Positions 6,813-59,168 of a stretch of 64,000 nucleotides of DNA are shown here, in pieces; the stretch's first letter is position 1, and every line of letters begins with the position of its first letter. Location of the stretch: positions 13,239 to 77,238 of the forward strand of contig JBDKSP010000021.1 of the NCBI GenBank assembly GCA_039680575.1, given 5' to 3'. Both the position numbers and the translations under genes were made by a program. The notes below the pieces were generated by a model, which did not search any database, had not been told where the DNA came from, and was given only the letters and a program-made list of their open reading frames with translations. The stretch is from Armatimonadota bacterium (GTDB lineage Bacteria > Armatimonadota > UBA5829 > DTLH01).

Positions 6813-7652
6813 TTGCTATTCAACAGACGAAAAAGACGATTCATAACGCGAAGCCGTATAGTGATTGTCCTGCTATTACTTGCGGCTGTCCTTCATGTTT
6901 ATGCACGGAAAATAGAGCCGCGTTGGATACAGGTGACACATTACGATGTGGAGCTTAATGGGTTGCCGAATTCGCTCGATGGCCTCAAAGTGGTTCAGCT
7001 CAGTGATACACATAGAAGCTGCAAAACCCCTGACTATATCATCAAGAAAGCTGTAAAGTTAGCCAACAGCGAATCTCCCGATATAATCGTCATAACCGGG
7101 GATTTTATCAACAAAGGTATCGAAAATGCGAAGCCCTGCGCGGAAATGCTGTCAAAATTGAAAGCGCCAAAGGGCATATATGGGGTGATGGGCAACCATG
7201 ACTGCTGGTACGGAGCGGCTGATGTGACTCGTGCGCTCGAATCTAAGGGGATTCACGTGCTGACCAACAAAAATCGCCAAGTAGCGCCCGGATTATACAT
7301 AATCGGGATAGATGATGTCTGGTCAGGACATCCTGATGTTAATCGCGCATGGTCCGGCGTTGATGAAAAAGCCGGTCAGATACTTCTCTCTCATTCACCG
7401 CTTGCCATGCCTGTCTTCAAAGATAGAAACTGTCTTGCGCTGACCGGTCATACTCATGGCGGGCAGTACACAATCCCGTTTATTCCCAGAAACAGGCTGC
7501 CGGGGCTAAGAGGCTCGCCCTACATAAGCGGATGGTACCGGGAAGGCAATGTTCAGATGTATGTGAACAGGGGAATTGGCATGGCTGTCGTACCCGTTCG
7601 TTTCCTATGCAGGCCGGAGGTGACCGTCTTCACGTTGCGGAGCAGAAAATGA
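6813..7652 (+). CDS. metallophosphoesterase (calcineurin-like), membrane-anchored
   Basis: N-terminal TM helix. Motifs LSDTH, GDFINKG, GNHD and GHTHGGQ of calcineurin-like phosphoesterases. Confidence 0.7.
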   Translation: MLFNRRKRRFITRSRIVIVLLLLAAVLHVYARKIEPRWIQVTHYDVELNGLPNSLDGLKVVQLSDTHRSCKTPDYIIKKAVKLANSESPDIIVITGDFINKGIENAKPCAEMLSKLKAPKGIYGVMGNHDCWYGAADVTRALESKGIHVLTNKNRQVAPGLYIIGIDDVWSGHPDVNRAWSGVDEKAGQILLSHSPLAMPVFKDRNCLALTGHTHGGQYTIPFIPRNRLPGLRGSPYISGWYREGNVQMYVNRGIGMAVVPVRFLCRPEVTVFTLRSRK

Positions 7653-7723
7653 AAAAGAGATCTGCTTGATGTTTTACCGGAAGTGTGGTACGCTTTCCCG
7701 TTGTTTATGGAGAGCAGTGCAAA

Positions 7724-9058
7724 ATGCCGTTATTTGATGATCAGGCAGACAAGATTGATTCAGGTGCGCCGCTTGCAGCAAGGATGCGTCCGAGGACTCT
7801 GGATGAATTTCTGGGACAGGAGCATATACTCGGCTCGGACAAGCTGCTCAGGCGCGCCATAGAGCGTGATGAGCTTACTTCCGTTATATTCTGGGGTCCT
7901 CCCGGCTGTGGGAAGAGCACCTTGGCTGGTATTATTGCAAATACGAGCCAGTCAGTGTTTGAAAACTTCAGCGCGGTCATATCGGGGATCGCAGATGTCA
8001 GAAAAGCCGTAGCAAAAGCAGATGAACGCCGCAAAACCTACGGGCAGAAGACGATTTTATTCGTCGATGAAATACATCGCTTCAACAAAGCCCAGCAGGA
8101 TGCGTTTTTGCCGCATGTGGAAAGCGGCACTGTGGTTTTGATCGGTGCGACTACGGAAAACCCCTATTTTGAGGTCAACTCACCGCTTATCTCGCGTTCA
8201 CGCATATTCAAGTTCGAGCCACTTACTAATAATAGCATCAAAGAGATCATATCAACCGCCATTTTGGACCCCGAAAGAGGGTTCGGAAGCCTGAATGTGG
8301 AACTCGATCAGGATGCGCTCGATCATATTGTGAATGTGGCTGCTGGGGACGCCAGAAACGCGTTGAACGCGCTTGAACTTGCGGTTATGACGACACCTCC
8401 TGATGAGGCCGGCGTGCGGCAGGTAACTTTACAAATTGCTGAGGAAGCTATACAGCAGAGAGTGTTGAACTACGACAAAAATGGGGATAACCATTACGAT
8501 ACGATCTCTGCATTTATAAAATCGATGAGAGGCTCCGACCCGGACGCAGCCCTTTACTGGCTTGCACGGATGTTGCATGTGGGCGAAGATCCGAGGTTCA
8601 TCGCCAGGAGGATAGTCATTCAATCCGCGGAAGATGTAGGCAACGCAGACCCGATGGCGCTTGTAGTTGCTACCGCGGCTGCTCAGGCGGTTGAATATGT
8701 CGGTATGCCGGAAGCTAGAATACCGCTGGCGCAGGCCGCGATTTATCTGGCCTGCGCGCCGAAGAGCAATGCAAGCTATCTGGGGATCAGCCGGGCTATG
8801 AAGGATGCCGCTGAGAGGCGCCCGGCTCCGGTCCCGGTGCATTTGCGTGATGCGGGCTATCCGGGAGCAAAAAAAATCGGGCATGGCAAGGGCTACAAGT
8901 ATCCTCATGATTTTCCAGGCGGATACGCTCCTCAGGAATACGTTCCTGACGATGCTAAAAGCGGCAGATATTATGAACCGACGGAAAGAGGCCATGAAGC
9001 AAAGTTCAAGAAGCGGCTTGAGGCAATAAGAAAAGGTGCGGAGGACGTCGAGGAGTAA
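7724..9058 (+). CDS. rarA: replication-associated recombination protein A (RarA/MgsA AAA+ ATPase)
   Basis: Walker [12 protein letters not shown], Walker [11 protein letters not shown]-terminal MgsA helical domain ([16 protein letters not shown]). GGAGAG RBS 10 nt before the ATG at 7724. The longer ORF begins at 7685. Confidence 0.85.
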
Positions 9059-10218
9059 TGAACAATCGAGTAGCTGTAGCCATGAGCGGCGGAGTCGATA
9101 GTTCCGTTGCCGCGGCGATCCTTGTCGAGCAGGGGTATGAAGTAATCGGTGTTACAATGTGTCTGCTTAAGGGGTCTTTGGAACGGTCTACAGGTGCATG
9201 CTGCACACCGGAGTCCGTTGAAGATGCACGAAGAGTCGCCGCAAAGCTCGGAATCAGCCATTACGTGATCCCGATGCAGGAACAGTTCGATAATTTTGTT
9301 ATAGATAATTTCATAGAGGAATACAAACGGGGGCACACCCCGAACCCATGCATAAGGTGCAACAGGTTTCTGAAATTCGATGTATTGATTGAATGGGCAA
9401 AATCAGTCGGAGCGGACAGGATTGCAACCGGGCATTACGCGGGAGTCAGATACGACGAAGAGTGCGGCAGATGGCTTCTTTTGCGCGGCAAGGACAGGTC
9501 GAAGGACCAGGCTTACGCACTCTATGCGCTTACGCAGCCGCAGCTGGAGAGGGTCATCTTTCCGCTTGGCGGAATGAAGAAAGTTGAGACGAGAAAGCGT
9601 GCAGCTGAGCTCGGGTTGAGAGTGGCGGACAAGCCGGACAGCCAGGAGATTTGCTTTGTACCGGGCAGAGATTATCCGGCTTTTCTGAGGGCTGTCGCTC
9701 CCGAGTTGGTCCAGCCGGGTCCAGTTGTCGATTTGGACGGTAAAGTGCTTGGCCAGCACCAGGGTATAGCTTTTTATACTGTCGGGCAGCGTAAGCGGCT
9801 TGGTATCAGTTCTCACGAACCAAGGTATGTAGTGAGGGTGGACAGTGAGACAAATACGGTTGTAGTCGGGGCGAATGAGGACCTTTTTGCTGGAACGCTT
9901 GTAGCAAAAGATCTGAACCTGATCTCGATTGAGAGCCTGCCTGATACCCTTGCCGTTACAGCGAAGATCAGATATAATACGAAAGATTCGCCGGCAGTCG
10001 TTCGCGGGCTGTTCAAAAATATGGCCGAGGTTGTATTCGAACAACCGCAAAGAGCAGTAACTCCGGGACAGGCTGTCGTGATGTATCAGGGCGAAATCGT
10101 GGTCGGAGGCGGGACTATCGCCGACGAACGGGAAGCCGAGGAGATAATCTCCCTTACGAAAGCACGAAAGGGAGAAAACACGAAAGAAGAGACAGGAAAC
10201 AGGGAACAAAGGGCGTAA
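9058..10218 (+). CDS. mnmA: tRNA 2-thiouridine(34) synthase MnmA
   Basis: PP-loop AMSGGVDSS. Catalytic Cys motifs NPCIRCN and EICF. Length 386 aa. Confidence 0.85.
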   Translation: MNNRVAVAMSGGVDSSVAAAILVEQGYEVIGVTMCLLKGSLERSTGACCTPESVEDARRVAAKLGISHYVIPMQEQFDNFVIDNFIEEYKRGHTPNPCIRCNRFLKFDVLIEWAKSVGADRIATGHYAGVRYDEECGRWLLLRGKDRSKDQAYALYALTQPQLERVIFPLGGMKKVETRKRAAELGLRVADKPDSQEICFVPGRDYPAFLRAVAPELVQPGPVVDLDGKVLGQHQGIAFYTVGQRKRLGISSHEPRYVVRVDSETNTVVVGANEDLFAGTLVAKDLNLISIESLPDTLAVTAKIRYNTKDSPAVVRGLFKNMAEVVFEQPQRAVTPGQAVVMYQGEIVVGGGTIADEREAEEIISLTKARKGENTKEETGNREQRA

Positions 10219-10408
10219 GAGATAATTTATGGAGAATATGCATCGGCAAGCAGTCCGAAGCAGAAGTCTCCACCAATCCGAGAGGCTGGCTTCGGCGCAA
10301 AAGACACGCACGGAAGCATACCTATAGAGTTTCAGGAGATAAAGTAACAGCCTTACAGCTATATAAACAGTTCTCTGATATAGCTTTATCTGTTAATTTT
10401 ACACTTAC

Positions 10409-10484
10409 ACCTGAAACTCTTCCGGAGGATTTTCGGCAACAGCCAAAATATGATTGGCCGTTAATTAATCAGCCGAAAATCTAT
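10409..10484. repeat. fragment of the MITE-like repeat family (shares the palindromic module of copy E, interrupted by a 37-bp insert)
   Basis: cctgaaactcttccggaggattttcggc ... gccgaaaatc is the reverse complement of the 28390-28460 module of copy E. Confidence 0.5.
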
Positions 10485-10517
10485 AGATTCTGAATCCTGT
10501 TTTGGAGGCATTGGCGA

Positions 10518-10937
10518 GTGCTGCAAGGTTTGTTAGTTGCCGCTGTAGTAATAAACAGCCTGGTCCTGCTGGCTGTGGTCATAGCAGGGATTCTGATTGT
10601 CAAAAGGATCAGCAGGGCTGCAGATGCAGCGGAAGATGCAATAAATAATGTTCGTGATGAGCTGCCGACAACAATTAAAACAGCGAACGATACGCTGCGG
10701 GCAGCTCAAAGCACGCTAAAGTCAGTAGACAGGCTGGCAGACAGGACCACTGAGGAGCTTTACAGGGTAGATGATATTCTGGCATCAATAGACAAGCTGC
10801 TTAGAGGTGTGACTGTCGCAGATGCCGCTGTAAAGGTGGTCAAAAGTACACATTCGACAGCCGCTGGTGTACTGGCTGGAATCAAGGAAGCTCTGCGGGT
10901 TTTTCATTCATCAGCAGGGAAAACAAAGGAGGATTAG
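10518..10937 (+). CDS. DUF948/YtxG-like membrane-anchored coiled-coil stress protein
   Basis: GTG start 9 nt after GGAGG. Single N-terminal TM helix followed by a coiled coil. Size and architecture match Bacillus ytxG-type general stress proteins. Confidence 0.5.
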   Translation: MLQGLLVAAVVINSLVLLAVVIAGILIVKRISRAADAAEDAINNVRDELPTTIKTANDTLRAAQSTLKSVDRLADRTTEELYRVDDILASIDKLLRGVTVADAAVKVVKSTHSTAAGVLAGIKEALRVFHSSAGKTKED

Positions 10938-10941
10938 GGAT

Positions 10942-11208
10942 ATGAGTAATAACGAAGAGAAAGGTGTTGCTCTGAACTTTCTGGCAGGAGTTGGTATAGG
11001 TGCAATAATCGGTGCAGGAATAGCGCTTTTGTTTGCACCCAAATCAGGTACTGAGACTCGCGATGATATCAAAAACGCGATGCATGAACTGTCAAAATCG
11101 ACGGAAGACCTTCGAAATAAAAGCGCTGAGATAGTCGAATCAGCGAAAGCCAGAGTCCAGGAGACCATAAATAGAAGACGGATAGGTGAAGAGTCTGAAG
11201 AGGCCTAA
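10942..11208 (+). CDS. YtxH-like general stress protein
   Basis: AAAGGAGG RBS. N-terminal motif GAGIALLFAPKSGTETRDDI is the hallmark of the YtxH family. Confidence 0.65.
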   Translation: MSNNEEKGVALNFLAGVGIGAIIGAGIALLFAPKSGTETRDDIKNAMHELSKSTEDLRNKSAEIVESAKARVQETINRRRIGEESEEA

Positions 11209-11366
11209 TCCAAAATCCGAAAACTCCTCAAAATGGAACGTTTCTATTTGGGATATACGTAGGCTTTCAGGGGAATGATTAGAGTAGGATTCACTACCGT
11301 GCTGTGGTCCATTTCAGGGCAGAATGGAGTGATATCGAAGTGAATTTCAGTATAGATACATACAAT

Positions 11367-11693
11367 ATGGAAAGCGGTGTGCCGGTCATAAAACTGACCG
11401 GTGAAGTCGACGTCTATACCGCGCCGCAGCTAAAGCAGCAGATGATAGGAATGCTCGAAGCAGGCGCGAATCAGATTCTCATTGATCTTACGGAAGTCGA
11501 GTACTTCGACAGCACAGCTCTTGGTGTGCTGATCGGGGGCCTCAAGCGGATGAGGGAACGTGACGGTAACCTATCGCTGATATGCCCGAACCCAAGGATC
11601 CGCCGGGTTTTCGAGATAACCGGGCTGGACAAGATTTTTGACATCTACAACAGCGCAGATGAAGCAAAAATCGCGATCCAACTGGTACCGTGA
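11367..11693 (+). CDS. anti-sigma factor antagonist (STAS domain, RsbV/SpoIIAA-like)
   Basis: STAS fold signature LTGEVDVYTAPQL...DLTEVEYFDSTALGVLIG, with the phosphorylatable Ser in DST. The ORF is open from 11304; the ATG at 11367 is preferred. Confidence 0.8.
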   Translation: MESGVPVIKLTGEVDVYTAPQLKQQMIGMLEAGANQILIDLTEVEYFDSTALGVLIGGLKRMRERDGNLSLICPNPRIRRVFEITGLDKIFDIYNSADEAKIAIQLVP

Positions 11694-12187: not shown

Positions 12188-12961
12188 ATGGCAACGCGAA
12201 GAAAGGGTGGCGTTGCGGGATGGACAGACGAAGAGACTGAGCAATTGTTTCGTCGTTATACCAGGACGCGAGACCCTCAAATTCGCGATCAGCTTGTCAT
12301 AATGCATCAGAACCTGGTGCGTTTTTTGGCGGGCAAGTTTGCGAACAGGGGTGAGGCACTTGAGGATCTCGTTCAGGTCGGCGTCATCGGGCTTATAAAT
12401 GCGATTGACAGGTTCGATCCTGAGCGGGGAACCAAGTTCTCGACCTATGCGACTCCAACAATTGTAGGTGAGATCCGACGCCATTTCCGCGACAAAGCAT
12501 GGAGCTTGAAAGTACCCCGCCGCCTGCAGGAGCTGAACCTTGCTGCAAATAAGGCTGCGGAGAGGTTAAGTCAATCACTCGGTCGCCCACCAACCATCCA
12601 GGATATTGCAAATGAAGTAGGCGCGACGGAAGAAGAGACGCTCGAAGCAATAGAACTTGGAAACGCCTACGACACGGTCTCTCTGGACAGCAAGCTGTCT
12701 CATGAGGGGGAATCCGCACCGCTTACTCTTGCGGAATTCGTAGGTGGGATGGATGGGTCGCTGCAGAACATAGATACTTACGGTGACCTGAAACAGGCGA
12801 TGGAGTGCCTTGAACCAAGAGAAAAGGCGATTATTTACTATCGCTTCTTTAAGGATATGTCTCAGACTGAGGTCGCGCGGAGACTGAACATCTCACAGAT
12901 GCATGTTTCCAGACTTCAGCAAAAAGCGCTGAAACGGTTGAAAGACCTGCTCAACGAATAA
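12188..12961 (+). CDS. RNA polymerase sigma factor, group 3 (SigB/SigF-like)
   Basis: Region 2 LVQVGVIGLINAIDRFDPERGTKFSTYATPTIVGEIRRHFRD, and a region 4 helix-turn-helix (MSQTEVARRLNISQMHVSRL). The ATG lies 4 nt after the stop of the kinase gene. Confidence 0.85.
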   Translation: MATRRKGGVAGWTDEETEQLFRRYTRTRDPQIRDQLVIMHQNLVRFLAGKFANRGEALEDLVQVGVIGLINAIDRFDPERGTKFSTYATPTIVGEIRRHFRDKAWSLKVPRRLQELNLAANKAAERLSQSLGRPPTIQDIANEVGATEEETLEAIELGNAYDTVSLDSKLSHEGESAPLTLAEFVGGMDGSLQNIDTYGDLKQAMECLEPREKAIIYYRFFKDMSQTEVARRLNISQMHVSRLQQKALKRLKDLLNE

Positions 12962-13026
12962 AAGAATGCATTCATCAAGGCGGAGGGGCTTACCATTGCC
13001 CTCCGCCATCACTGGTATCTCACACT

Positions 13027-19733: not shown

Positions 19734-20928
19734 TTTGGTTGATGTCTTATTTGAAATTGGTCCAAAAATCATCCAAGAGGAGAATATCGACGGTTATAAA
19801 CGGATAACCGGAGAGTTTTGGACAGCTCGCCAGAGGCAGATGCACTCCATCCACTACGCCGTGTCATACCGCGCGTCTTTCAAGCCGGAATTGCCGAATT
19901 ATTTTATAAACCGTTATTGCAGCGACTATAAAAATGACATGGTGCTCGACCCGTTCGGCGGCCGAGGTACAACAATATTGGAAGCCAATATTCTCGGTTT
20001 TTCAGGCTATTCGAACGATGTGAACCCGCTTTCCGAACGGATCGCTCGCCCGAAATGCCGCCCGGTTACGCTGGAAGAGGCCAGTAAGCATTTAGATCGG
20101 ATCGATTTCAACGCCGATGTCGATATCAGCGATTACAGCGACTTTTCGCCCTTTTATCACATAGACACATACCGGGAGATGCTTGCGCTGAAGGAGTATC
20201 TGAAGAAAAACAGGTCGGACGCTGATTGCTTTATAGAGATGATAGCCCTTTCTCGCCTGCATGGACACTCGAGAGGCTTCTTTTCGGTCTATTCATTTCC
20301 TCAAATATCCATTCTAAGTGCCGCGCAGGCAAGGATCAATGAGCAGCGGAACCAGACTCCCGAATACAGGCAGGTCAAGCCGCTTATTTACCAGAAAGCA
20401 AAGAGAGTCCTAAAGGATTTCACCGGAGAAGAGATCGTAAAGCTGAATGAAACGGCCGCAAGGAACATCTTCACCTGCGAAGACAGCCGGAATATGGCCA
20501 GCATACCCCAGGACTCTGTCACGCTTATAGTCACTTCACCTCCGTTTCTGAATAAAGCCGACTATATTCAGGATAACCGGCTCGAGTTCTGGTTCCTGGG
20601 CATAGATCCTGAACCGCTGAAAGAGAAAGTAGTCCAGACCAAAAATCTCGATGAATGGATAGAGTTTATGAGGGACAGTATCCGGGAGATGTATCGGGTG
20701 TTGAGGACCGGCGGGGTCGCTGTGATAGAGGTCGGGGATGTGAAGCATAAAGGACATACGATTAATCTGGATGAGGTAATCGTCGAGCTTGGTAAAGAGG
20801 CCGGGTTCAGTGTCGTCGAGGTACTGATAAATTTCCAGCAGTTCACGAAACTCGCAAACTGCTTCAATGTAGATAACATGAGCAAGGGAACGAACACAAA
20901 CCGCCTCGTTATCATCAGAAAGGATTGA
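19726..20928 (+). CDS. site-specific DNA amino-methyltransferase, alpha-class topology (N4-cytosine or N6-adenine)
   Basis: AdoMet motif I VLDPFGGRGTT at aa 76, and catalytic motif IV SPPF at aa 270, separated by a putative target-recognition region. The GTG start as called overlaps the upstream gene by 8 nt. Confidence 0.65.
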   Translation: MDNLVDVLFEIGPKIIQEENIDGYKRITGEFWTARQRQMHSIHYAVSYRASFKPELPNYFINRYCSDYKNDMVLDPFGGRGTTILEANILGFSGYSNDVNPLSERIARPKCRPVTLEEASKHLDRIDFNADVDISDYSDFSPFYHIDTYREMLALKEYLKKNRSDADCFIEMIALSRLHGHSRGFFSVYSFPQISILSAAQARINEQRNQTPEYRQVKPLIYQKAKRVLKDFTGEEIVKLNETAARNIFTCEDSRNMASIPQDSVTLIVTSPPFLNKADYIQDNRLEFWFLGIDPEPLKEKVVQTKNLDEWIEFMRDSIREMYRVLRTGGVAVIEVGDVKHKGHTINLDEVIVELGKEAGFSVVEVLINFQQFTKLANCFNVDNMSKGTNTNRLVIIRKD

Positions 20929-50100: not shown

Positions 50101-52332
50101 CTATTTCTGGACCATTGCTTTCACTGTGGAGACGATATCGTTTCTTGTCGGAACGACCGCATCCTCCAAAGGCTCGCTCATCGGAACCGGGCAGTCCTTA
50201 CCGGAGAGCATCACGGGCTGAGCATCCAGCCAGTCGAATCCTGTGGTTCCGTCATCGAATTTATATTCAATGAGTTGTCTCACGATCTCGGCTCCGACGC
50301 CGCATCTCGGATAACCTTCGGATACGGTTATGAGTTTTCCGGTCTTTCGCACCGATTCGGCGATTGTCTTGATGTCGAGCGGGTTCAGCGTCCTCGGGTC
50401 GATAACTTCTATATCATAACCGTCTTTTTCAAGTTCCAGAGCGGCATCCATCGCAAAGTGGAGGAGTCTGGAGTAGGCTACTACAGTTATGTCCTTGCCT
50501 GGGCGTTTGATATCGGCAACACCGAGCGGGATTATATAATCACCATCCGGTACCGGGCCCATAGCCCCTGAATAAAGGACCTTGTGCTCGATATAGAGGA
50601 CAGGGTTGTCGTCTCTGATAGCAGCTTTCAAGAGTCCTTTTGCGTCATACGGCGTGGAGGGCATCACAATGTAGATTCCCGGCACGTTCATAAACATCGC
50701 TTCGAGGCTTTCCGAGTGGTGGGCTGCTATACTTCGTCCGACGCCGCCTTCGGTCCTGACTACACACGGCACTTTTGTTTTTCCACCGAACATATACCTG
50801 TTGTAACCGACATTGTGGATTAGCTGGTCGGAGGAAATGGTCAGGAAGTCGATATACATGATCTCGGCTATCGGCCTGGCGCCCCGCATTGCGGCTCCAC
50901 CGGCTGCGCCGACGATAGCAGCTTCGGAAATTGCTGTATCGATGACTCTTCTTGGCCCGAACTCGTCCATCAACCCTCTGGTCGCCGCGTATGCGCCGCC
51001 GTAGAGCCCTACATCCTCACCCAGGATAAAGACTGTCTCATCACGCTGCATCTCTTCACGCTGGGCTTCGAGAATAGCTTGTCCGAAGTTTATAACTCGC
51101 ATACCATGCTTGGCTTCTATAGCCTTCGATTGATCGGCTTTCAGCTTCGGTATGGCAGCTTTGGGAGCGCCGCCGGCTGCTTCTCGTGCGATTTTGCGGA
51201 TTTCGTCCTCGACCTGGTGTATCTTCGGCAGGACTTTTGCTTCAGCGGTTTTCTCAGACTCCAGCTTTGCTGTGTCGACCGGCACATAGACATCGTCCAT
51301 CAGCTCGGAAACGTGAGGGTAGGGGCTGTCGAGTGCAAACTTGGTGGCGTTCTCGATGGTTGCTTCTGCCTTATCGCGAACTGCATCCAATTCTTTCTCG
51401 GTCGCCATTCCGAGATCGGTCAGCTTATCCCGAAGGACAATGATCGGGTCTCGTTTTTTCCACTCTGCTTCTTCTTCGCGAGTCCTGTAGATTCTCTGAT
51501 CGCTGGAGGAGTGACCATACCACCTGTATGTCTTGAGTTCGACAAGGGTGGGTCCGTCGCCGCGGCGGGCTCGCTCGACAGCTTTGGAGACCGCTTTCTT
51601 GACCTCGAGCACATCCATGCCGTCAGCTGACACTCCGGGCATACCATAGGCGGCTGCGCGCTCGGAAATATCGCTTATCATGCTGGCTTGTCCTGCGCAT
51701 TCGACAGTTCTTTGGTTGAATGGGACTGACATGCCGTAAAGATTGTTTTCGCAGATGTAGACTACAGGAAGTCCACAGAAGAGGGTGCTTCCCATATTGA
51801 GTGCTTCATGGAATGAACCGGTGTTGGTGGAACCGTCACCGAAGAAACAGAGAGTGACTGCTCCGCTGCCCTTCAGTGATTCCGCAAGGGCTGCTCCCGT
51901 GGCAACAGGTATGTTGCCACCGACGATACCTGTGGATCCGAGGTTGCCTTTCTGGACATCGGCGATATGCATCGATCCGCCACGGCCTTTACAGTAGCCC
52001 GTGGACTTGCCCATCAGCTCGGACATCATCTTGTTCCAGTGCTCCTGACGGGCTTCTTCGGTTTTTGCGTGCTTGTTGCCGATTGCTCCGCAGTGGCCAT
52101 GGCCTCTGTGCGTACTCGCTATGAGGTCGCGGTCTTCAATAGCTGCTACAGCGCCGACTGCAGCGGCTTCTTCACCTGCATAGAGGTGGGACGCACCTTT
52201 GATGGTCCCTTCTCTCAGCAGGCTGTAGACTTTGTCTTCAAAAAATCTGATTTCGTAAATAGACCTGAGATAATCGAGCAGTTCTGCTTTGCTCTCCTTC
52301 ACAGTCGTAGAGGATCGTTCCTTGGTTGCCAT
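50101..52332 (-). CDS. fused 2-oxoacid dehydrogenase E1 component (alpha and beta subunits in one polypeptide)
   Basis: N-terminal half with the TPP-binding E1-alpha motifs (YRGHGH, GDG...N). A Lys/Ala-rich linker. C-terminal half is an E1-beta transketolase-like domain. Confidence 0.75.
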   Translation of the reverse strand: MATKERSSTTVKESKAELLDYLRSIYEIRFFEDKVYSLLREGTIKGASHLYAGEEAAAVGAVAAIEDRDLIASTHRGHGHCGAIGNKHAKTEEARQEHWNKMMSELMGKSTGYCKGRGGSMHIADVQKGNLGSTGIVGGNIPVATGAALAESLKGSGAVTLCFFGDGSTNTGSFHEALNMGSTLFCGLPVVYICENNLYGMSVPFNQRTVECAGQASMISDISERAAAYGMPGVSADGMDVLEVKKAVSKAVERARRGDGPTLVELKTYRWYGHSSSDQRIYRTREEEAEWKKRDPIIVLRDKLTDLGMATEKELDAVRDKAEATIENATKFALDSPYPHVSELMDDVYVPVDTAKLESEKTAEAKVLPKIHQVEDEIRKIAREAAGGAPKAAIPKLKADQSKAIEAKHGMRVINFGQAILEAQREEMQRDETVFILGEDVGLYGGAYAATRGLMDEFGPRRVIDTAISEAAIVGAAGGAAMRGARPIAEIMYIDFLTISSDQLIHNVGYNRYMFGGKTKVPCVVRTEGGVGRSIAAHHSESLEAMFMNVPGIYIVMPSTPYDAKGLLKAAIRDDNPVLYIEHKVLYSGAMGPVPDGDYIIPLGVADIKRPGKDITVVAYSRLLHFAMDAALELEKDGYDIEVIDPRTLNPLDIKTIAESVRKTGKLITVSEGYPRCGVGAEIVRQLIEYKFDDGTTGFDWLDAQPVMLSGKDCPVPMSEPLEDAVVPTRNDIVSTVKAMVQK

Positions 52333-52563: not shown

Positions 52564-54327
52564 GTGAATCGCAATAATGGGAATACTGATGATAGACAGG
52601 CGGAGATAGAAAAACAGGGGGTTCCCGAGCCTGTTATGGCATTCGTTCACCAAAGTCCGATCAGTATGTGGGTTACGGACTCCAACGGCACGCTGGTCAC
52701 TGAGAATGAGGCGAGCAGGCAGTTATTCAGGCTCTCGGGTGATGATACACTTGTTGGAAATTACAATATTTTTAAAGACGATGAAATTATCAATCAAGGA
52801 TACGCACCTCGGATAAGGCGCGTCTTCGAAGAAGGAATATCCACTCATTTCGTAATAGATTATCAGTTCTCATACGTTAGGCGCATTCTGCATGTGAATC
52901 CGACACATCTTGCTCTTCGTGTCTTCATTTTCGTTGCGAAAGACATATCAGGTGGAGTCGGGTATGCAATCGTTCAGCACGAGGATTACACGGAGCAATG
53001 GCGGATAGACAAGTCGCTGGCCGAGTCTGAAGCCCATTATCGAAATATTGTCGAGCATATATCTGATTGGGTGTGGGTGATAGACACAGATGGAAGACTG
53101 CTTTATTCCAACCCCGTTGCGGAGACTCTGATCGGGCGGCGGACGGATTATATTCTTGGCAGATGCATAGTTGATTTCGTCGCAGAGCAGACTCGTGACA
53201 AAGTCCGGCAAGCGCTTAATGAAGCTATCCGTGCAAAAAAGAGAATAAACCATATGACAATGCAGATTGTGAGCACGGATGGATCAACGAGCTATCTTGA
53301 AGCGCGTGGGGAACCCATATTCGATCAGCGGGACAATCTGATCGGTTATCGCGGAATTGCCATAGACATGACTGAACGTCATTTAGCGGAGGAGGCTATC
53401 CGAAGGTCCGAAGAAAGGTTTCACACTATATTCGATCACGTACCCGCTGCAATATTCGTGTATGACCGGGACGGGGTAATTCTGCAGGCCAACGCTGCAT
53501 GTGAGCAGGTCTATGGTATATTGCAGGAGCATTTGGTTGGGAGGTCCATGATAGGCGCTGTTGCCAGAAGCGAAGAAATCGAGAGAGTGAAGGAAATTCT
53601 TGGAAGGGTCTTTTCCGGCGAGACTGTGAAGGGCGAAGAGTGGGAAATAGAACGCCCTGATGGGTCAGCGGCACTTGTTTCGGCTAATACGGCACCTCTC
53701 TACGACGAATCAGGCAATGTTGTATCGGGTATCGGCTTGAATATCGACATCACAGAGCGCACGCTGCAGGAACAGAGGAGACTGGAACTGGAGAAGAACA
53801 AACGTGATTTCTATCGCTCCACGATTCTCGCTGCAACCGGTGGTAAGCTGGTTGTCACCGATCATGAAGAGATAGAGAAGATGGCGGGACCAAGTTTGGC
53901 TTCATGGTCTATTACCGAACCGGAGGAGGTTAGGACAGTACGGCATGGTGTCGCTGATGTCGCAAGATCAGCAGGAATGGATGAGCCTAAAATAGAAGAC
54001 CTCGTTCTCTGTGTGGGGGAGCTTATGACAAATACCATAAAACATGCAGGTGGAGGTGATGCATCCATTCATCAGTTGCCGGATGCTCTGCTTTTTGTAT
54101 GCAGGGACCATGGCCCTGGGATTGAAACGATGGTTTTGCCTCAAGTGACGCTGGAAAAGGGGTATTCAACAGCTCATTCTCTTGGAATGGGCTATAAGGA
54201 AGTTATCCAGATCGGAGACAAGGTCAGCCTTGCCACGGATCCGAGGGGTACAACCGTTGCAGTCGAGATGAAACTGAAACATGAGCAAGTGTCTTCTGAA
54301 GCACAGGCGCTGCTCGACAGATGGTAG
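52564..54327 (+). CDS. PAS-domain sensor fused to an RsbW/SpoIIAB-like serine-kinase (HATPase_c_2) domain
   Basis: Three PAS/PAC units. C-terminal block LVLCVGELMTNTIKHAGGGD...CRDHGPGIE is typical of partner-switching kinases. No HisKA H-box. Confidence 0.5.
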   Translation: MNRNNGNTDDRQAEIEKQGVPEPVMAFVHQSPISMWVTDSNGTLVTENEASRQLFRLSGDDTLVGNYNIFKDDEIINQGYAPRIRRVFEEGISTHFVIDYQFSYVRRILHVNPTHLALRVFIFVAKDISGGVGYAIVQHEDYTEQWRIDKSLAESEAHYRNIVEHISDWVWVIDTDGRLLYSNPVAETLIGRRTDYILGRCIVDFVAEQTRDKVRQALNEAIRAKKRINHMTMQIVSTDGSTSYLEARGEPIFDQRDNLIGYRGIAIDMTERHLAEEAIRRSEERFHTIFDHVPAAIFVYDRDGVILQANAACEQVYGILQEHLVGRSMIGAVARSEEIERVKEILGRVFSGETVKGEEWEIERPDGSAALVSANTAPLYDESGNVVSGIGLNIDITERTLQEQRRLELEKNKRDFYRSTILAATGGKLVVTDHEEIEKMAGPSLASWSITEPEEVRTVRHGVADVARSAGMDEPKIEDLVLCVGELMTNTIKHAGGGDASIHQLPDALLFVCRDHGPGIETMVLPQVTLEKGYSTAHSLGMGYKEVIQIGDKVSLATDPRGTTVAVEMKLKHEQVSSEAQALLDRW

Positions 54328-54377
54328 AGAGATAGAGGAGTAACCTAACAAATGACTAAGCGCCCCTTTCACGCGCC

Positions 54378-54406
54378 TTGACACGGTTCCGGGTCGATGG
54401 TAGGAT
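54378..54406 (+). promoter_or_regulatory. sigma-70-type promoter for hrcA (TTGACA-17nt-TAGGAT)
   Basis: Consensus -35 hexamer, 17-nt spacer and TAnnnT -10, about 45 nt upstream of the hrcA start. Confidence 0.5.
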
Positions 54407-54452
54407 GAAACTTGGAAATTAAGCTTTCCGACAGAAACCTGCAGGTAATAGA

Positions 54453-55514
54453 ATGGGTGCGCACTTCGAATCATTGGATGATAGAAAGCGGAAAATTCTC
54501 AAAGCGGTAGTACACGAGCATGTAGAGACTGCCGAGCCCGTTGCATCGGAATCTTTGGTGCAGCATTATGACTTCGGCGTCAGGTCTGCTACTATCCGCA
54601 ACGAAATGGCTGAGATGGCGGATATGGGCTATCTCCGGCAACCGCACACATCCGCGGGACGGATCCCATCGGATTTGGGCTACCGGTTCTATGTAGACCA
54701 GTTGATGGATGCTCCGCATCTGCCAAAGAGCGATGCAGTTAAAGCAAAAGAGAGCCTCGCTTCTGCCGCTGCTGAGTTCGATCGTGCCGTCAGCCAGACC
54801 TGCCGTATTCTCACGGGGCTTACGCGCTACACATCTATCGCCACCCAGATAGTAGGCAGGGAGACGATTATCCGTCATATCAGCCTTTCCAGGATTACAG
54901 GCCGAAAACTGCTCCTTGTCGTCGTGCTCTCGGATGGACGTGTGGAACACAGGATCGTCGATCCGGGTATTCCGGTGCAGGACAGAGATGTAATCCATGC
55001 TTCGAACCTGTTTTCAGCGCATTTCTGCACAGCAAGCATCGAGACAGTGCTTTCAGTCGGTGATAGCGATTTTCCACAGCCTGTATCGCAGTCCGCCAGC
55101 GCAATCTATACAAAAGCGAAAGATGTTCTCAAGGATTTGGCTGAATCCTTGTCTTTTTCTGAGGCCAGTGTTCATATAGAAGGAACAAACTATATCCTGT
55201 CTCAACCCGAATTTCAAGATGTGCTCAGACTTACATCGATACTTTCAGCGCTCGAAGAGCGGACACGGCTCTACCAGCTTCTTTCCAGGCTGGTCCTCGG
55301 TCCTGATGTAACGGTAATCGTAGGCGCGGAGAACCCCTACAACGAAATGCAGGATACCAGCTTTGTCGCCGCAAGCTACAAGATCGGTGACAAGGTTGTC
55401 GGTACTATCGGGGTCATGGGACCGACTAGGATGAACTATCGGCGCGCAGTAGCAGCTGTTGAAATTATGGCAAGAAACTTGAGCAATTTGCTCACCGATT
55501 TGAGCTTAAGTTAA
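54453..55514 (+). CDS. hrcA: heat-inducible transcription repressor HrcA
   Basis: N-terminal winged-helix (RKRKILKAVVHEHVETAEPVASESL) and the HrcA C-terminal domain. Length 353 aa. Confidence 0.85.
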   Translation: MGAHFESLDDRKRKILKAVVHEHVETAEPVASESLVQHYDFGVRSATIRNEMAEMADMGYLRQPHTSAGRIPSDLGYRFYVDQLMDAPHLPKSDAVKAKESLASAAAEFDRAVSQTCRILTGLTRYTSIATQIVGRETIIRHISLSRITGRKLLLVVVLSDGRVEHRIVDPGIPVQDRDVIHASNLFSAHFCTASIETVLSVGDSDFPQPVSQSASAIYTKAKDVLKDLAESLSFSEASVHIEGTNYILSQPEFQDVLRLTSILSALEERTRLYQLLSRLVLGPDVTVIVGAENPYNEMQDTSFVAASYKIGDKVVGTIGVMGPTRMNYRRAVAAVEIMARNLSNLLTDLSLS

Positions 55515-55591
55515 CTTACTTTAATATAAGTTTTCAGACGTAATTGTTGGGTGTTGGTTCACGGCACCCAATACTTTTTGTGAGAGGTACA

Positions 55592-57166
55592 ATGACGGAT
55601 AACGTAAAGCAGGTTAGTAAAGGTGCGGAGGTCGATGAGCGTCTTGCCGCGCTTCTTGCAAACGCCGGAGCGATAAAGACTGTTGCTTCCGCTGTCGAAG
55701 GGACTATCGGGCCAAAAGGGCTGAACTGTATGCTTGTCGACAGGTTCGGCGATGTCATTATCACCAACGACGGAAGCGCAATACTCGATAAAATAGATGT
55801 GACCCATCCGGCTTCCCGGATGCTCATCAACACTGCGAAGGCACAGGATGATGAGGTCGGTGACGGCACTACCACCGCTACGTTACTCGCAAGCGCGCTT
55901 GTGACCGAAGGAGCGAACCATGTCGCCCGGGGCGTGCCTGTAACTAAGGTTATCGACGGGCTGCAGCTTGGTGTCTCTTCGGCGCTCTCTTTCATCAGGA
56001 GCCAGGCAAAGCAGATCGAAGGGTTCGACGACGAATGGCTCATCAAGACCGCGCAAGTCTCTGCGAGAGGACAGGAAGACCTGGCTGAGCTTGCCGTAAG
56101 CGCCGCGAAACTCGTCGGGCGTGAAAAGCTCTCTGAACCTGCATTCAAACTCTCGGATACCATCGTGGCAAAAGAAGGCGCGGAAAACGAGGTTTTTTCC
56201 GGGCTTGTCATCGATAAGGAACGGATTTCCAGACAGATGCCTTTCTCCATCGAAGATGTAAAGGTCCTTGTAGTCGATGATGCCATCGAGCCGGAGAAAC
56301 TGGAGGAAGACGCGCTTGCTACTGAAGCAGGATTCTCCCGTTATATGGCACTCCAGTCAGAGTTTCATGCGAACCTTAAAAAGATAATCGACCTCGGAGT
56401 CCGGTTTGTCGCGGCTGCAAAGTCTATAGATGACGCGGCAGAGGAGATATTTACGGATGCAGGAATACTCGCAGTCCGCAGGTTGTCTTCCAGGGATATA
56501 ACCCGGCTGGCAGACCATACCGGGGCACGTCCGATTAAGCGGTCAGGGCTTAAAAAGGATGCTGCAGAGCTTGAAAAGTTTCTCGGCAAATGCGACCGGG
56601 TATACGAAGATGAGCACCTGGGCCACATACGGGTAATCGGCGGCGAAGGAAAGCCCGCCGCGACGATTTTGGTCGGCGCATCGACACAGGAAGTCAAGGA
56701 AGAGCGTGACCGGATTGCGAAAGACGCGGCTTCGGCGGTCCAGGCTGCGATACTTAGCGGTGTAGTTCCAGGCGGAGGCTCAATTGAGCTTGCGGCCGCC
56801 CGCAAAGTCGGAGAACTCCGGCAGGAAGTCCGGGGAATGGCTGCCTACGGCGTAGATTGTGTCGCTGAGGCACTGAAACGGCCTCTTATGCAGATCGTGG
56901 CGAATGCAGGGTTCAATCCGCTTGAAAAAGTGGAAGATGCAATCGCCGCTCAGTCAAAAGACGGTAAATCATCGCTTGCCGTGGATTGCGATACGGGCGA
57001 GGTCGTCGATATGTTCGAACTAGGCGTCATCGATCCTGCTCGTGTCAAGATTCACGCGCTAAAAGCAGCGGGTGAAGTCGCGGAGGCGGTGCTGAGGATA
57101 AATATAATCATCAGGAAACGTGAGGACGGCACGGGACAGAAACCCGATGGCCGTATGTCGGGGTGA
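55592..57166 (+). CDS. group II-like (archaeal/thermosome-type, 'group III') chaperonin
   Basis: Thermosome/CCT-type blocks GPKGLNCMLVDRFGDVIITNDGSAILDKIDVTHPASRML and QDDEVGDGTTTAT. No GroEL-type GGM tail. GAGAGG RBS before the ATG at 55592. Confidence 0.75.
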   Translation: MTDNVKQVSKGAEVDERLAALLANAGAIKTVASAVEGTIGPKGLNCMLVDRFGDVIITNDGSAILDKIDVTHPASRMLINTAKAQDDEVGDGTTTATLLASALVTEGANHVARGVPVTKVIDGLQLGVSSALSFIRSQAKQIEGFDDEWLIKTAQVSARGQEDLAELAVSAAKLVGREKLSEPAFKLSDTIVAKEGAENEVFSGLVIDKERISRQMPFSIEDVKVLVVDDAIEPEKLEEDALATEAGFSRYMALQSEFHANLKKIIDLGVRFVAAAKSIDDAAEEIFTDAGILAVRRLSSRDITRLADHTGARPIKRSGLKKDAAELEKFLGKCDRVYEDEHLGHIRVIGGEGKPAATILVGASTQEVKEERDRIAKDAASAVQAAILSGVVPGGGSIELAAARKVGELRQEVRGMAAYGVDCVAEALKRPLMQIVANAGFNPLEKVEDAIAAQSKDGKSSLAVDCDTGEVVDMFELGVIDPARVKIHALKAAGEVAEAVLRINIIIRKREDGTGQKPDGRMSG

Positions 57167-57774
57167 GGGAATATTATATGCGCAGACAAAACGATTACGA
57201 CAAAAAGAAAATCGATATAGAAGTCGAAGAAACCAATAGTGAAGAAAGCCTTGAGCCGGAGACCGAAGCACTTACTCCATCGGTCGATGAACTACAGGGT
57301 GAGATAGAGCGCCTGAGGACCGAACTGGAAGAAGAAAAGAAGCGCGCCGATGAGGAACATGACCGTCACCTGAGGGCACTCGCGGACTTCAGCAATTATA
57401 AAAGACGGCACAATGAAGAGTCTAAACAGGCAATTCAGTTTGCATCGCAGGAATTGATACTCAAAATCCTCCCTGTCATCGACAACTTCCAGCGCGCGCT
57501 CGATTCAGCCGAAAAAACGCAGAGCTTCGACGGCCTTGTAGAAGGAGTCCGCTTGACCCTTCGTCAGTTGGGCGATATTCTCGAACGAGAAGGAGTCCAG
57601 CAGATCAAAGCCGCGGGCGAACAGTTCGATCCTGCGTATCATGAGGCCGTCATGCGGGTCGAGACTGACGAATACCCGGAAAACACCATTGTCGATGAGT
57701 TTCAACCCGGCTACATTCAGCACGATAGAGTAATTCGTCCAGCAAAGGTGAGGGTTGCTGTTTCACCGGAATAG
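57163..57774 (+). CDS. grpE: nucleotide exchange factor GrpE
   Basis: Coiled-coil N-terminus and GrpE signature LRALADFSNYKRR...ILPVIDNFQRAL. An alternative ATG lies at 57178. Confidence 0.85.
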   Translation: MREYYMRRQNDYDKKKIDIEVEETNSEESLEPETEALTPSVDELQGEIERLRTELEEEKKRADEEHDRHLRALADFSNYKRRHNEESKQAIQFASQELILKILPVIDNFQRALDSAEKTQSFDGLVEGVRLTLRQLGDILEREGVQQIKAAGEQFDPAYHEAVMRVETDEYPENTIVDEFQPGYIQHDRVIRPAKVRVAVSPE

Positions 57775-57789
57775 AACAATGAATATAGT

Positions 57790-57818
57790 GGCCGGGCTTC
57801 GTCCCGGCCTTCCTTCTC
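57790..57818 (+). terminator. terminator-like hairpin after grpE (ggccgggcttcgtcccggcc plus T-rich tail)
   Basis: Same stem sequence family as the 15122-15141 hairpin. Confidence 0.45.
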
Positions 57819-57829
57819 ATGCTGCATAT

Positions 57830-58162
57830 TTATTGTCGTTTTGGCCTGATTCCCACATACGAAAGCAAAGCCCTTCCGTTGTAGAAAATGTGTATTGTGC
57901 CAAGGAACAGGATAAGGATCCCAGCCAGTTTGTGCAGCTCTTCCGGGAAAAATCCGTGCCTTCCATGTGGTATTGGTGCAGGTGGAGCATCGCGGGTATC
58001 CACAGCGGAAGCCACTGCCGACCTGCCTCTATGCCCATCATGACCATGACTCGAAATCATGGATACCACTGTTACAAACATCGCGATAAAGCTGATCGCA
58101 AGCAATATTGATGTTACTTTTCTCATAGAATTCGTTTTCCTTATAAAGAGATAATAAAGCAC
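57830..58162 (-). CDS. small His-rich membrane protein (hypothetical)
   Basis: Two TM helices flank an HGHDGH / PIPHGRHG segment. Weak support. Confidence 0.3.
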   Translation of the reverse strand: MLYYLFIRKTNSMRKVTSILLAISFIAMFVTVVSMISSHGHDGHRGRSAVASAVDTRDAPPAPIPHGRHGFFPEELHKLAGILILFLGTIHIFYNGRALLSYVGIRPKRQ

Positions 58163-58225
58163 TTGCAGAAAGCCTCTGGCAACATTTAAGCATCCCCAAT
58201 TCTATCGCAAGAAGCTAACGTCGCA

Positions 58226-58978
58226 TTATTCGGAGGATTGCGGAACGTGTATTACCTTGACAACCTCAGGATCCATAAAATCTATCCTTGCTGCTAATGT
58301 ATTAAGCGCATCGATTGGAAGGCTTACTACCACCTGCGGGTTGCGCGGGCTGCATATGGACAATACTTTTACCTTGGCGTCATAGCTCGATACGGACAGG
58401 CTGCGGGTTCCCTCATCGAAGATTTGAGCATACTTCGAGAGTGTTTCCTCATTCGGCTCAGCCATCGTTATCACACAAGGCCGTTTCGGATGCCCATTCT
58501 TGTCTACATCCTTGACCAGCCTGGCTACCCCATCAGCAAGAGTTCTGTCCTTTTCCTGCTGATTATCGTAAACGACCCAATTACCAGTACCGACGTAATG
58601 CTTGAAATCCATTTTCCCATAGCTGAGTTTCGCTGTGACAGGGTCATAACCGCCGCTTCTCTTGCTGACAGCCAGAGAATAGATATTAATCAGATTATCC
58701 GGTTCTCCAAAGGAAAATCCGTTAGCCATCGACTTGTTCAGCTCCGGTTTAGCCACGAATGTCTGCCGACCGGCGAGTATGACCGCCCAACCACCGGCTC
58801 TTGGCGTGATGGCTGTCTTGAACGCTGCCGGATCGGTCTCAGCAAATGCCAGCGTATGCGAGTAAACAGCTTCAACATCCGATTTAGCCTGCTTGAAGCT
58901 GCCAATCACCTCATTAAAGGACGGTGTCTGAGCAGCAACCGCAATGTTCAACAAAAGAACTCCTAGAAACAACCCCAT
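58226..58978 (-). CDS. secreted hypothetical protein
   Basis: Signal peptide MGLFLGVLLLNIAVAAQT. The ORF is open upstream to 59074. No family recognised. Confidence 0.4.
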   Translation of the reverse strand: MGLFLGVLLLNIAVAAQTPSFNEVIGSFKQAKSDVEAVYSHTLAFAETDPAAFKTAITPRAGGWAVILAGRQTFVAKPELNKSMANGFSFGEPDNLINIYSLAVSKRSGGYDPVTAKLSYGKMDFKHYVGTGNWVVYDNQQEKDRTLADGVARLVKDVDKNGHPKRPCVITMAEPNEETLSKYAQIFDEGTRSLSVSSYDAKVKVLSICSPRNPQVVVSLPIDALNTLAARIDFMDPEVVKVIHVPQSSE

Positions 58979-59168
58979 TCCGATACAGATAGTTTTAAGT
59001 CTCAAAAGATACCTCCGCACAGCCGGAAAACCCGGATAATGACATATATTAATATGACTCAGATTTATTCGCATTATTGCTCACGTTGTAAAATCTTGAC
59101 TCTGATACCCATCTGAAGGGATAATCTTGAGAGAGGTACGCCAACTTTTCTGAAAAGGAATCTGACCT

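Follow-up and report, generated by a model that had tools for sequence, protein, structure and literature searches.

A group III chaperonin gene between hrcA and grpE in an Armatimonadota bacterium

We analyzed a 64,000-nucleotide (nt) stretch of DNA from an Armatimonadota bacterium, here called the window, in which a chaperonin gene, cpn, lies between hrcA, encoding the heat-inducible transcriptional repressor HrcA, and grpE, encoding the nucleotide-exchange factor of DnaK. Sequence, phylogeny, signature residues and predicted fold support the assignment of the chaperonin to group III, the bacterial thermosome-like proteins. Its setting is probably a class I heat-shock (dnaK) operon in a trimmed form characteristic of its lineage, which is Armatimonadota wherever a taxon name exists. 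dnaK and dnaJ do not follow grpE, the operator CIRCE (controlling inverted repeat of chaperone expression) does not precede hrcA, and the hrcA-cpn spacer holds a terminator-like stem-loop. Gene searches and CIRCE scans of the host DNA cover these 64 kb. The open reading frames (ORFs) place hrcA, cpn and grpE on the same (+) strand at 54453-57774, in a compact three-gene unit in which cpn and grpE are closely joined. Its features are as follows.

54378-54406, + strand: predicted sigma-70-type promoter, TTGACA-17-TAGGAT with a TG extended -10, matching 10 of 12 positions in a consensus scan
54453-55514, + strand: hrcA, heat-inducible transcriptional repressor, 353 amino acids (TIGR00331, PF01628)
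55545-55583, + strand: intercistronic stem-loop with the U-rich tail CTTTTTGTG (terminator-like scan, RNA folding)
55582-55587, + strand: putative cpn ribosome-binding site GAGAGG, outside the stem-loop (read from the sequence)
55592-57166, + strand: cpn, group III (bacterial thermosome-like) chaperonin, 524 amino acids (PF00118, 5x9u match, tree, fold)
57178-57774, + strand: grpE, DnaK nucleotide-exchange factor, 198 amino acids (PF01025, NF010738)
57790-57809, + strand: GC-rich, terminator-like hairpin GGCCGGG-N6-CCCGGCC, with seven GC pairs and a weak T tail

The chaperonin and its relatives

The cpn protein matches PF00118 over residues 31-510 with an E-value of 1.4e-114. An earlier reading of the DNA, made from the sequence alone, had called a 525-residue chaperonin at 55592-57166; the coordinates hold, while the protein is one residue shorter, codon 525 being the stop. 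The thermosome/CCT peptide motifs that this sequence-only reading quoted (ITNDGSAIL, HPASRML and QDDEVGDGTTTAT) are all present. The best-scoring NCBIfam models are those of thermosomes, TIGR02339 at 307 bits (cut-off 671) and NF041083 at 307 (cut-off 400). CCT models score 158-219 bits, with cut-offs of 456-800, and GroEL models 162-179 bits, with cut-offs of 352-582; the GroEL model TIGR02348 reaches 162 bits, against a cut-off of 582, in two terminal stretches only. Identity to E. coli GroEL is 26%. When solved structures were searched with phmmer, the protein matched 5x9u, the Carboxydothermus hydrogenoformans chaperonin Ch-CPN, with an E-value of 1.9e-131, and thermosomes at about 1e-68 (the best at 3e-68).

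A neighbor-joining tree rooted with GroEL as the outgroup was built with 100 bootstraps from 60 sequences (495 columns), among them 22 archaeal group II sequences, including that of Thermococcus KS-1. The cpn protein falls inside a bacterial clade together with Ch-CPN (5x9u) in 100 of 100 bootstraps, separate from the 22 archaeal sequences and outside GroEL. Its identity is 31-35% to archaeal and 42-88% to bacterial sequences, with a clear gap between the two ranges. The proposal that this is a group III chaperonin rather than a GroEL is thus upheld by a tree covering groups I, II and III, and by GroEL and thermosome model scores far below their cut-offs.

Signature residues point the same way. 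In a pairwise alignment with the Thermococcus KS-1 thermosome, cpn has a six-residue gap opposite the nucleotide-sensing loop GK165NAESHK, and its R159, which does not vary among 56 relatives, lines up with the Arg of the Ch-CPN AGRGD motif. Judging from these alignments, the nucleotide-sensing loop of groups I and II appears to be absent, and an Arg would replace the group II Lys165. The group III lid is built in, shorter than that of group II, and carries a strictly conserved hydrophobic tip, which in Ch-CPN consists of Leu237, Phe243, Tyr246 and Phe253 (PMC5635000). L242, F248, Y251 and F258 of cpn align with these four positions; all four are invariant in a 12-sequence alignment, and L242, F248 and F258 are at least 90% conserved in 56 sequences. 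The lid region also has a four-residue deletion relative to the thermosome and to the ancestral group II chaperonin ACII. An AlphaFold 2 model of cpn (predicted local distance difference test 89.1, predicted template modeling score 0.82) was compared with known structures using Foldseek. The top matches are all chaperonins, with 5x9v and 5x9u first (template modeling (TM) score 0.86-0.93, 44% identity) and group II structures at a TM score of about 0.8.

These results dispose of one explanation, extremely improbable and rejected after testing, namely that cpn is an archaeal group II thermosome, recently transferred or drawn from a mis-binned or chimeric contig: thermosome models do give the best NCBIfam scores (300-307 bits) and the quoted motifs are common to thermosomes and CCT, but those scores lie far below the cut-offs of 400-671, the identities and the fully supported bacterial clade separate cpn from the archaeal proteins, the group III deletion and lid residues are present, and in each of 12 independent assemblies, some of whose contigs measure 1.6, 3.8 and 5.4 Mb, the gene is flanked by bacterial hrcA and grpE.

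One database entry among the structural matches is worth recording. PDB 9rwq, titled 'Ancestral Group II Chaperonin (ACII)', aligns to cpn at an E-value of 3e-193 with a single one-residue gap and beats every thermosome as a match, while 9rwp (E 4e-83) behaves like a true group II ancestor. Probably, in our view, 9rwq carries a wrong molecule name and represents the ACIII of PMC12696368.

How common are such proteins? The cpn protein is 100% identical to a protein from an NCBI Armatimonadota metagenome-assembled genome, where it already bears the generic annotation 'TCP-1/cpn60 chaperonin family protein'. Of 8000 candidates scored from the protein database, 4724 are homologues, and the best 120 all have at least 61% identity. 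Taxon names exist for only part of the relatives, and the matches that have them are mostly Armatimonadota, with two Bacillota. A metagenome scan with cpn yielded one further close relative, a duplicate of locus L004. The description of group III chaperonins as rare was overstated, given 4724 homologues in metagenome-scale data. The cpn protein adds a member to an already described family and leaves the definition of a group III chaperonin unchanged.

Operon types and regulatory sites

Loci carrying relatives of cpn were gathered from genomes, metagenomes and assemblies, and classed by tblastn and CIRCE scans into four types.

Type A, hrcA-cpn-grpE-dnaK-dnaJ: 24 complete loci, plus L013 and L034 with matching downstream genes; named members are Bacillota; perfect CIRCE where the region is present
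Type B, hrcA-cpn-dnaJ: L009, L011, L012 and L088-L091; perfect CIRCE
Type C, hrcA-cpn-grpE only: the window, L002, L004, L006, L008, L022, L112, L113, L114, L117, L118 and L119; no CIRCE at up to 4 mismatches
Type D, cpn alone: L007 and L020; no CIRCE

Type C thus comprises 12 distinct loci, the window included. Those with taxon names are all Armatimonadota, their chaperonins are 54-88% identical to that of the window, and three of them lie on the megabase-sized contigs mentioned above, ERZ25039554 contig_4527 (5.37 Mb), ERZ21831265 ctg82149l (3.78 Mb) and ERZ21831007 contig_12 (1.56 Mb). The layout hrcA-cpn-grpE without CIRCE is the standard one among relatives from this lineage and not a peculiarity of this genome. 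No dnaK was found downstream of the type C operons in flanks of up to 10 kb (about 0.1-5 kb in L117-L119), whereas grpE-dnaK follows cpn in 26 loci. The genes around the type C operons vary from locus to locus; the conserved entity is therefore the three-gene unit itself. The linkage of hrcA to cpn is the only one that types A, B and C all keep, and types B and C together show that hrcA and cpn form the constant pair while the genes of the DnaK system are interchangeable.

Two observations belong beside this classification. The type D genes (L007, 10001-11554; L020, 10001-11500) have no hrcA, grpE, dnaK or dnaJ in a 10-kb flank, or less at contig ends. In L040 (Paenibacillus sp.), the chaperonin match is split between 10001-10903 and 10906-11553 in different reading frames, which suggests a frameshifted gene or a sequencing error.

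CIRCE was searched as TTAGCACTC-N9-GAGTGCTAA, with degenerate scans at 3, 4 and 5 mismatches and spacers of 7-11 nt. At up to 3 mismatches, the 64-kb window contains no match. Between the cpn start and a point 300 nt upstream of hrcA, the best match has 6 mismatches in 18 positions, as does shuffled sequence; 5-mismatch sites at 20388, 32465 and 45180 lie far from the operon and are at chance level. The earlier claim that neither hrcA nor cpn is preceded by CIRCE therefore stands even when degenerate matching is allowed. Outside type C, each of the 34 loci for which the sequence preceding hrcA is available has a perfect CIRCE 30-129 nt before that gene; most of the named ones are Bacillota. 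Other known regulators left no trace either: boxes of the HspR-associated inverted repeat (HAIR) and of CtsR are absent near the operon, with only chance-level matches elsewhere, and an Rfam search of 54000-58500 (E-value up to 5) returned nothing but a spurious microRNA, hence no RNA thermometer or leader of a known kind. When the E. coli proteins DnaK, DnaJ, GroEL and GroES served as tblastn probes, none of these genes was detected in the 64 kb, the sole match being a weak one of GroEL to cpn (26%). That dnaK and dnaJ lie outside the unit, as had been proposed, agrees with their absence from tblastn results for both the window and the type C flanks.

What does HrcA bind if its own operon lacks an operator? 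The protein is a clear family member, scoring 279.7 bits against the TIGR00331 equivalog (cut-off 197.2) and 5.9e-52 against PF01628. Type C loci preserve its N-terminal winged-helix motif, SATIRNEM...QPHTSAGRxPS..GYRxYVD, to the same degree as the perfect-CIRCE loci of types A and B. Because this region is conserved, HrcA of type C has probably kept its specificity for CIRCE. An hrcA gene lacking its own operator is not unusual, given the precedent of Desulfovibrio, where hrcA has no CIRCE of its own and CIRCE occurs solely at groESL (PMC545781). In other bacteria, groESL alone is constantly part of the HrcA regulon (PMC545781).

The gene order hrcA-cpn-grpE read from the sequence is borne out by the ORFs and by matches to TIGR00331, PF00118 and PF01025. 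GrpE matches PF01025 at 5.1e-53 and NF010738 at 160.7 bits (cut-off 137). Its ORF opens at GTG 57163, an alternative start overlapping the cpn stop; the ATG at 57178 appears the likelier start. The GAGGG ribosome-binding site of this ATG overlaps the cpn stop codon, which argues for tight coupling of cpn and grpE. The cpn-grpE junction measures 0-31 nt in 9 of the 12 type C loci and is tight in type A too. Beyond grpE, the sequence-only reading had noted a terminator hairpin followed by oppositely oriented genes. The hairpin is there, with its weak T tail, and the minus-strand ORFs 57830-58162 and 58226-59074 come next, convergent to grpE; hairpins occur at the equivalent position in L002, L004, L112 and L118.

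The TTGACA-17-TAGGAT promoter named in the same reading is present as well. The pattern cTTGACA-N17-TAnnnT with GATG before the -10 box precedes hrcA in nine type C loci (the window and eight others), and L022 has a variant with TTGACA boxes and no GATG extended -10. In L113 and L114, the promoter matches 11 of 12 positions and is the only promoter-like site on the + strand across the operon. A sigma-32-type promoter was considered and rejected, the -10 box being TAGGAT with a TG extension and not CCCCAT. Farther into the hrcA leader, the window (54413-54430), L002, L004, L006, L008, L113 and L114 have in common a TGGGGAAC-like motif located 10-25 nt past the -10 box; it could be a leader element or plain shared ancestry.

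The spacer between hrcA and cpn

In the window, hrcA and cpn are separated by 77 nt, which hold a 12-pair stem-loop at 55545-55573. Its core, TTGGGTG-N11-CACCCAA at 55547-55571, is followed by the tail CTTTTTGTG and then by GAGAGG. The inverted repeat had been noticed before, and correctly so, except that its position was given as 55538-55562, 9 nt too low. It is unique in the window, where 0.05 matches are expected by chance. Folding of the RNA gives a centroid energy of -17.7 kcal/mol and a z-score of -2.1.

A spacer of 57-414 nt is present in 11 of the 12 type C loci, L112 having none, and in 9 of the 12 it contains a stem-loop with a z-score of -2 or below, ranging from -2.1 (the window) to -13.7. 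Within the subclade of the window (with L002, L004 and L117), conservation extends to the stem base GTTGGGTG...CACCCAAC and the U-rich tail, and the length of the interior ranges between 11 and about 75 nt; in L117, the tail is T6. At the equivalent position, L006, L008, L022, L114 and L119 carry unrelated hairpins. The corresponding junction of type A measures 4-78 nt; its foldable spacers are unstructured (z-scores of -1.7 to +1.6), the remainder are shorter than 15 nt, and no terminator-like hairpin was found at this junction in the 24 type A (Bacillota) loci. L006 has near-perfect long palindromes at 8560-8660, 9875-9985 and 11552-11662 (up to -102 kcal/mol, z-score about -14), lying upstream of hrcA and in both the hrcA-cpn and the cpn-grpE spacer. 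They have a CTTCGGCAGCG...CTGCTACCGAAG core in common and resemble a dispersed element of that genome similar to repetitive extragenic palindromic (REP) sequences.

Why would an operon keep hrcA and cpn together and place such an element between them? In the mechanism that we favor, a single transcript would start at the hrcA promoter, at an expected site near 54413 shortly beyond the -10 box, and end after grpE, and the operon would be transcribed without autoregulation by HrcA. HrcA would instead repress CIRCE-bearing genes elsewhere in the genome, probably groESL, with dnaK maybe another. To our knowledge, GrpE has no role without DnaK; DnaK and DnaJ would therefore be encoded elsewhere in the genome. 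The hairpin and its U-rich tail would make the mRNA levels of repressor and chaperonin independent of each other, through partial termination, through processing and stabilization, or through both. A comparable separation is known from Bacillus subtilis, in which cleavage by RNase Y in the hrcA-grpE spacer separates the expression of HrcA from that of the rest of the operon (PMC11313650). The chaperonin itself would form a lidded, ATP-driven, double-ring 16-mer folding chamber like that of Ch-CPN (PMC5635000).

Several considerations weigh against this picture. Promoter, co-transcription and hairpin function are all predicted from sequence. The hairpin is not universal, since L112 has no spacer and the folds of L113 (z-score -1.8) and L118 (z-score -1.3) are weak, and some type C hairpins may be dispersed repeats, as the palindromes in other spacers of L006 illustrate. 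Partial termination after hrcA would reduce cpn compared with hrcA, although the need is expected to be the reverse. Moreover, the 12 type C loci are related, and their contrast with Bacillota may reflect one ancestral rearrangement rather than repeated selection; in the tree, types C and D cluster among Bacillota sequences, weakly (52% bootstrap).

Could the stem-loops have no function at all? They would then be chance or dispersed REP-like palindromes in a tolerant spacer, with the genes co-transcribed and constitutive. The hairpin sequences are indeed unrelated between subclades, L006 has its long palindromes in three places, L112 manages without any spacer, and the window hairpin, with its z-score of -2.1, is the weakest. 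Yet the position is kept in 9-11 of the 12 loci although neighboring genes differ, the subclade of the window retains the stem base and the U-rich tail while the interior changes, every foldable type A spacer is unstructured, and the 64-kb window contains no second copy of the motif. We therefore regard a functionless stem-loop as unlikely.

A more ambitious extension of the favored mechanism strikes us as distinctly doubtful. Here, hrcA and cpn would form a self-contained module, free of CIRCE autoregulation and of DnaK-DnaJ, in which a lineage-specific RNA element, perhaps temperature-dependent, sets the ratio of repressor to chaperonin, and the group III protein, not GroEL, keeps HrcA active. 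In Bacillus, it is GroEL that affects the solubility or DNA binding of HrcA. Bolder still, and speculative, is the idea that these genomes lack GroEL and that the group III protein is their sole chaperonin; if true, this would be a major result. The hairpin was also considered as an RNA thermometer and rejected as such: it leaves the ribosome-binding site uncovered, and the stems in related loci are at -40 to -100 kcal/mol.

Very improbable, in our view, is a change of operator, by which TTGGGTG...CACCCAA would have replaced CIRCE in this lineage and HrcA would repress cpn-grpE from the repeat. The repeat is unique in the window and lies where a regulator of cpn is expected and CIRCE is missing, and the sequence of its arms is conserved in four loci (the window, L002, L004 and L117). 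However, the distance between the arms is 11 nt in the window and about 60-75 nt in the other three, a range that misfits the operator of a dimeric winged-helix protein and suits an RNA stem base. At this place, type C loci that are more distant carry unrelated hairpin sequences, no promoter-like site between hrcA and cpn is available to be controlled, and the DNA-binding domain of HrcA is as conserved as in CIRCE-bearing genomes. The variable arm spacing led us to reject the repeat as a DNA operator and suggests that it acts as an RNA or terminator hairpin.

Neighboring genes and known systems

Around the operon, a few further genes were recorded. A PAS-PAS-HATPase_c_2 protein with an RsbW/RsbA-like anti-sigma serine kinase domain is encoded at 52564-54327 (+) and ends 50 nt before the hrcA promoter; its position is not conserved in relatives. 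On the other side, convergent to grpE, a protein of about 250 amino acids with an N-terminal hydrophobic, signal-like segment is encoded at 58226-58978 (-) in the window, and also at 7383-8177 (-) in L004 and 12234-12998 (-) in L112, with 36-37% identity. It has no Pfam or NCBIfam match and, judging from these three loci, appears to be a conserved neighbor of grpE. A fused E1 alpha+beta 2-oxoacid dehydrogenase/transketolase-like protein is encoded near hrcA both in the window (50101-52332 (-), 743 amino acids) and in L112 (4062-6263 (-), 733 amino acids), a remnant of local synteny within the subclade. L113 (12561-15346) and L114 (2720-6047) have a corA-hsp20-RskA_C (anti-sigma-like) group within a few kb of the operon, on opposite sides.

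In discussions of chaperonin evolution, group III chaperonins figure as relics or as offshoots from an early stage, and their operon context has raised the possibility that DnaK is a direct partner. Techtmann and Robb reportedly described Ch-CPN of Carboxydothermus hydrogenoformans together with its dnaK operon in 2010. With one exception, group III genes are found within the dnaK operon, which suggests a functional tie to DnaK/DnaJ (PMC5635000, PMC5220055). This placement is a usual companion of the group and does not define it structurally. The loci compared here add a second phylum, Armatimonadota, in which the family is widespread. They indicate that the family can lose its association with dnaK-dnaJ and CIRCE and still stay linked to hrcA in all three hrcA-containing types, and that a post-transcriptional-looking element appears at the hrcA-cpn junction where CIRCE is absent. 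The argument that co-regulation with DnaK is essential is weakened, and HrcA is indicated as the conserved partner.

The closest known system is that of Ch-CPN (An et al. 2017, PMC5635000; 5x9u/5x9v). Window and Ch-CPN proteins belong to the same family and the same clade, with 44% identity and TM scores of 0.86-0.93; both have the L/F/Y/F lid tip and no nucleotide-sensing loop, and both genes stand directly after hrcA and before grpE. With the archaeal thermosome of Thermococcus KS-1 (1q3r), the protein shares the Cpn60/TCP-1 fold, a built-in lid (TM score about 0.80), the GDGTTT ATP-binding motif and independence of a GroES-type partner. The thermosome differs in its nucleotide-sensing loop, with six extra residues around K165, and in its longer lid; at 32-35% identity to cpn it belongs to a separate clade and has no hrcA/grpE context.

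Comparison of the operon itself leads to Bacteria. The hrcA-grpE-dnaK-dnaJ operon of B. subtilis likewise begins with hrcA followed by a gene of the DnaK system. Unlike the window, it has CIRCE and dnaK-dnaJ and no chaperonin gene at that place; its intercistronic element after hrcA is a site of RNase Y cleavage (PMC11313650), whereas the counterpart in the window is a predicted hairpin. HrcA regulons of the Desulfovibrio type (PMC545781) differ in having no group III chaperonin adjoining hrcA. In the Bacillota-type loci, dnaK-dnaJ continue the operon, a perfect CIRCE lies about 45 nt upstream of hrcA, and the hrcA-cpn junction is short and unstructured; the window, in contrast, has neither CIRCE nor dnaK-dnaJ, and its 77-nt spacer holds a terminator-like hairpin. 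To the published picture, the present comparison adds a variant found throughout the lineage, without dnaK-dnaJ and CIRCE and with a structured spacer; this is a modest refinement and no new kind of system.

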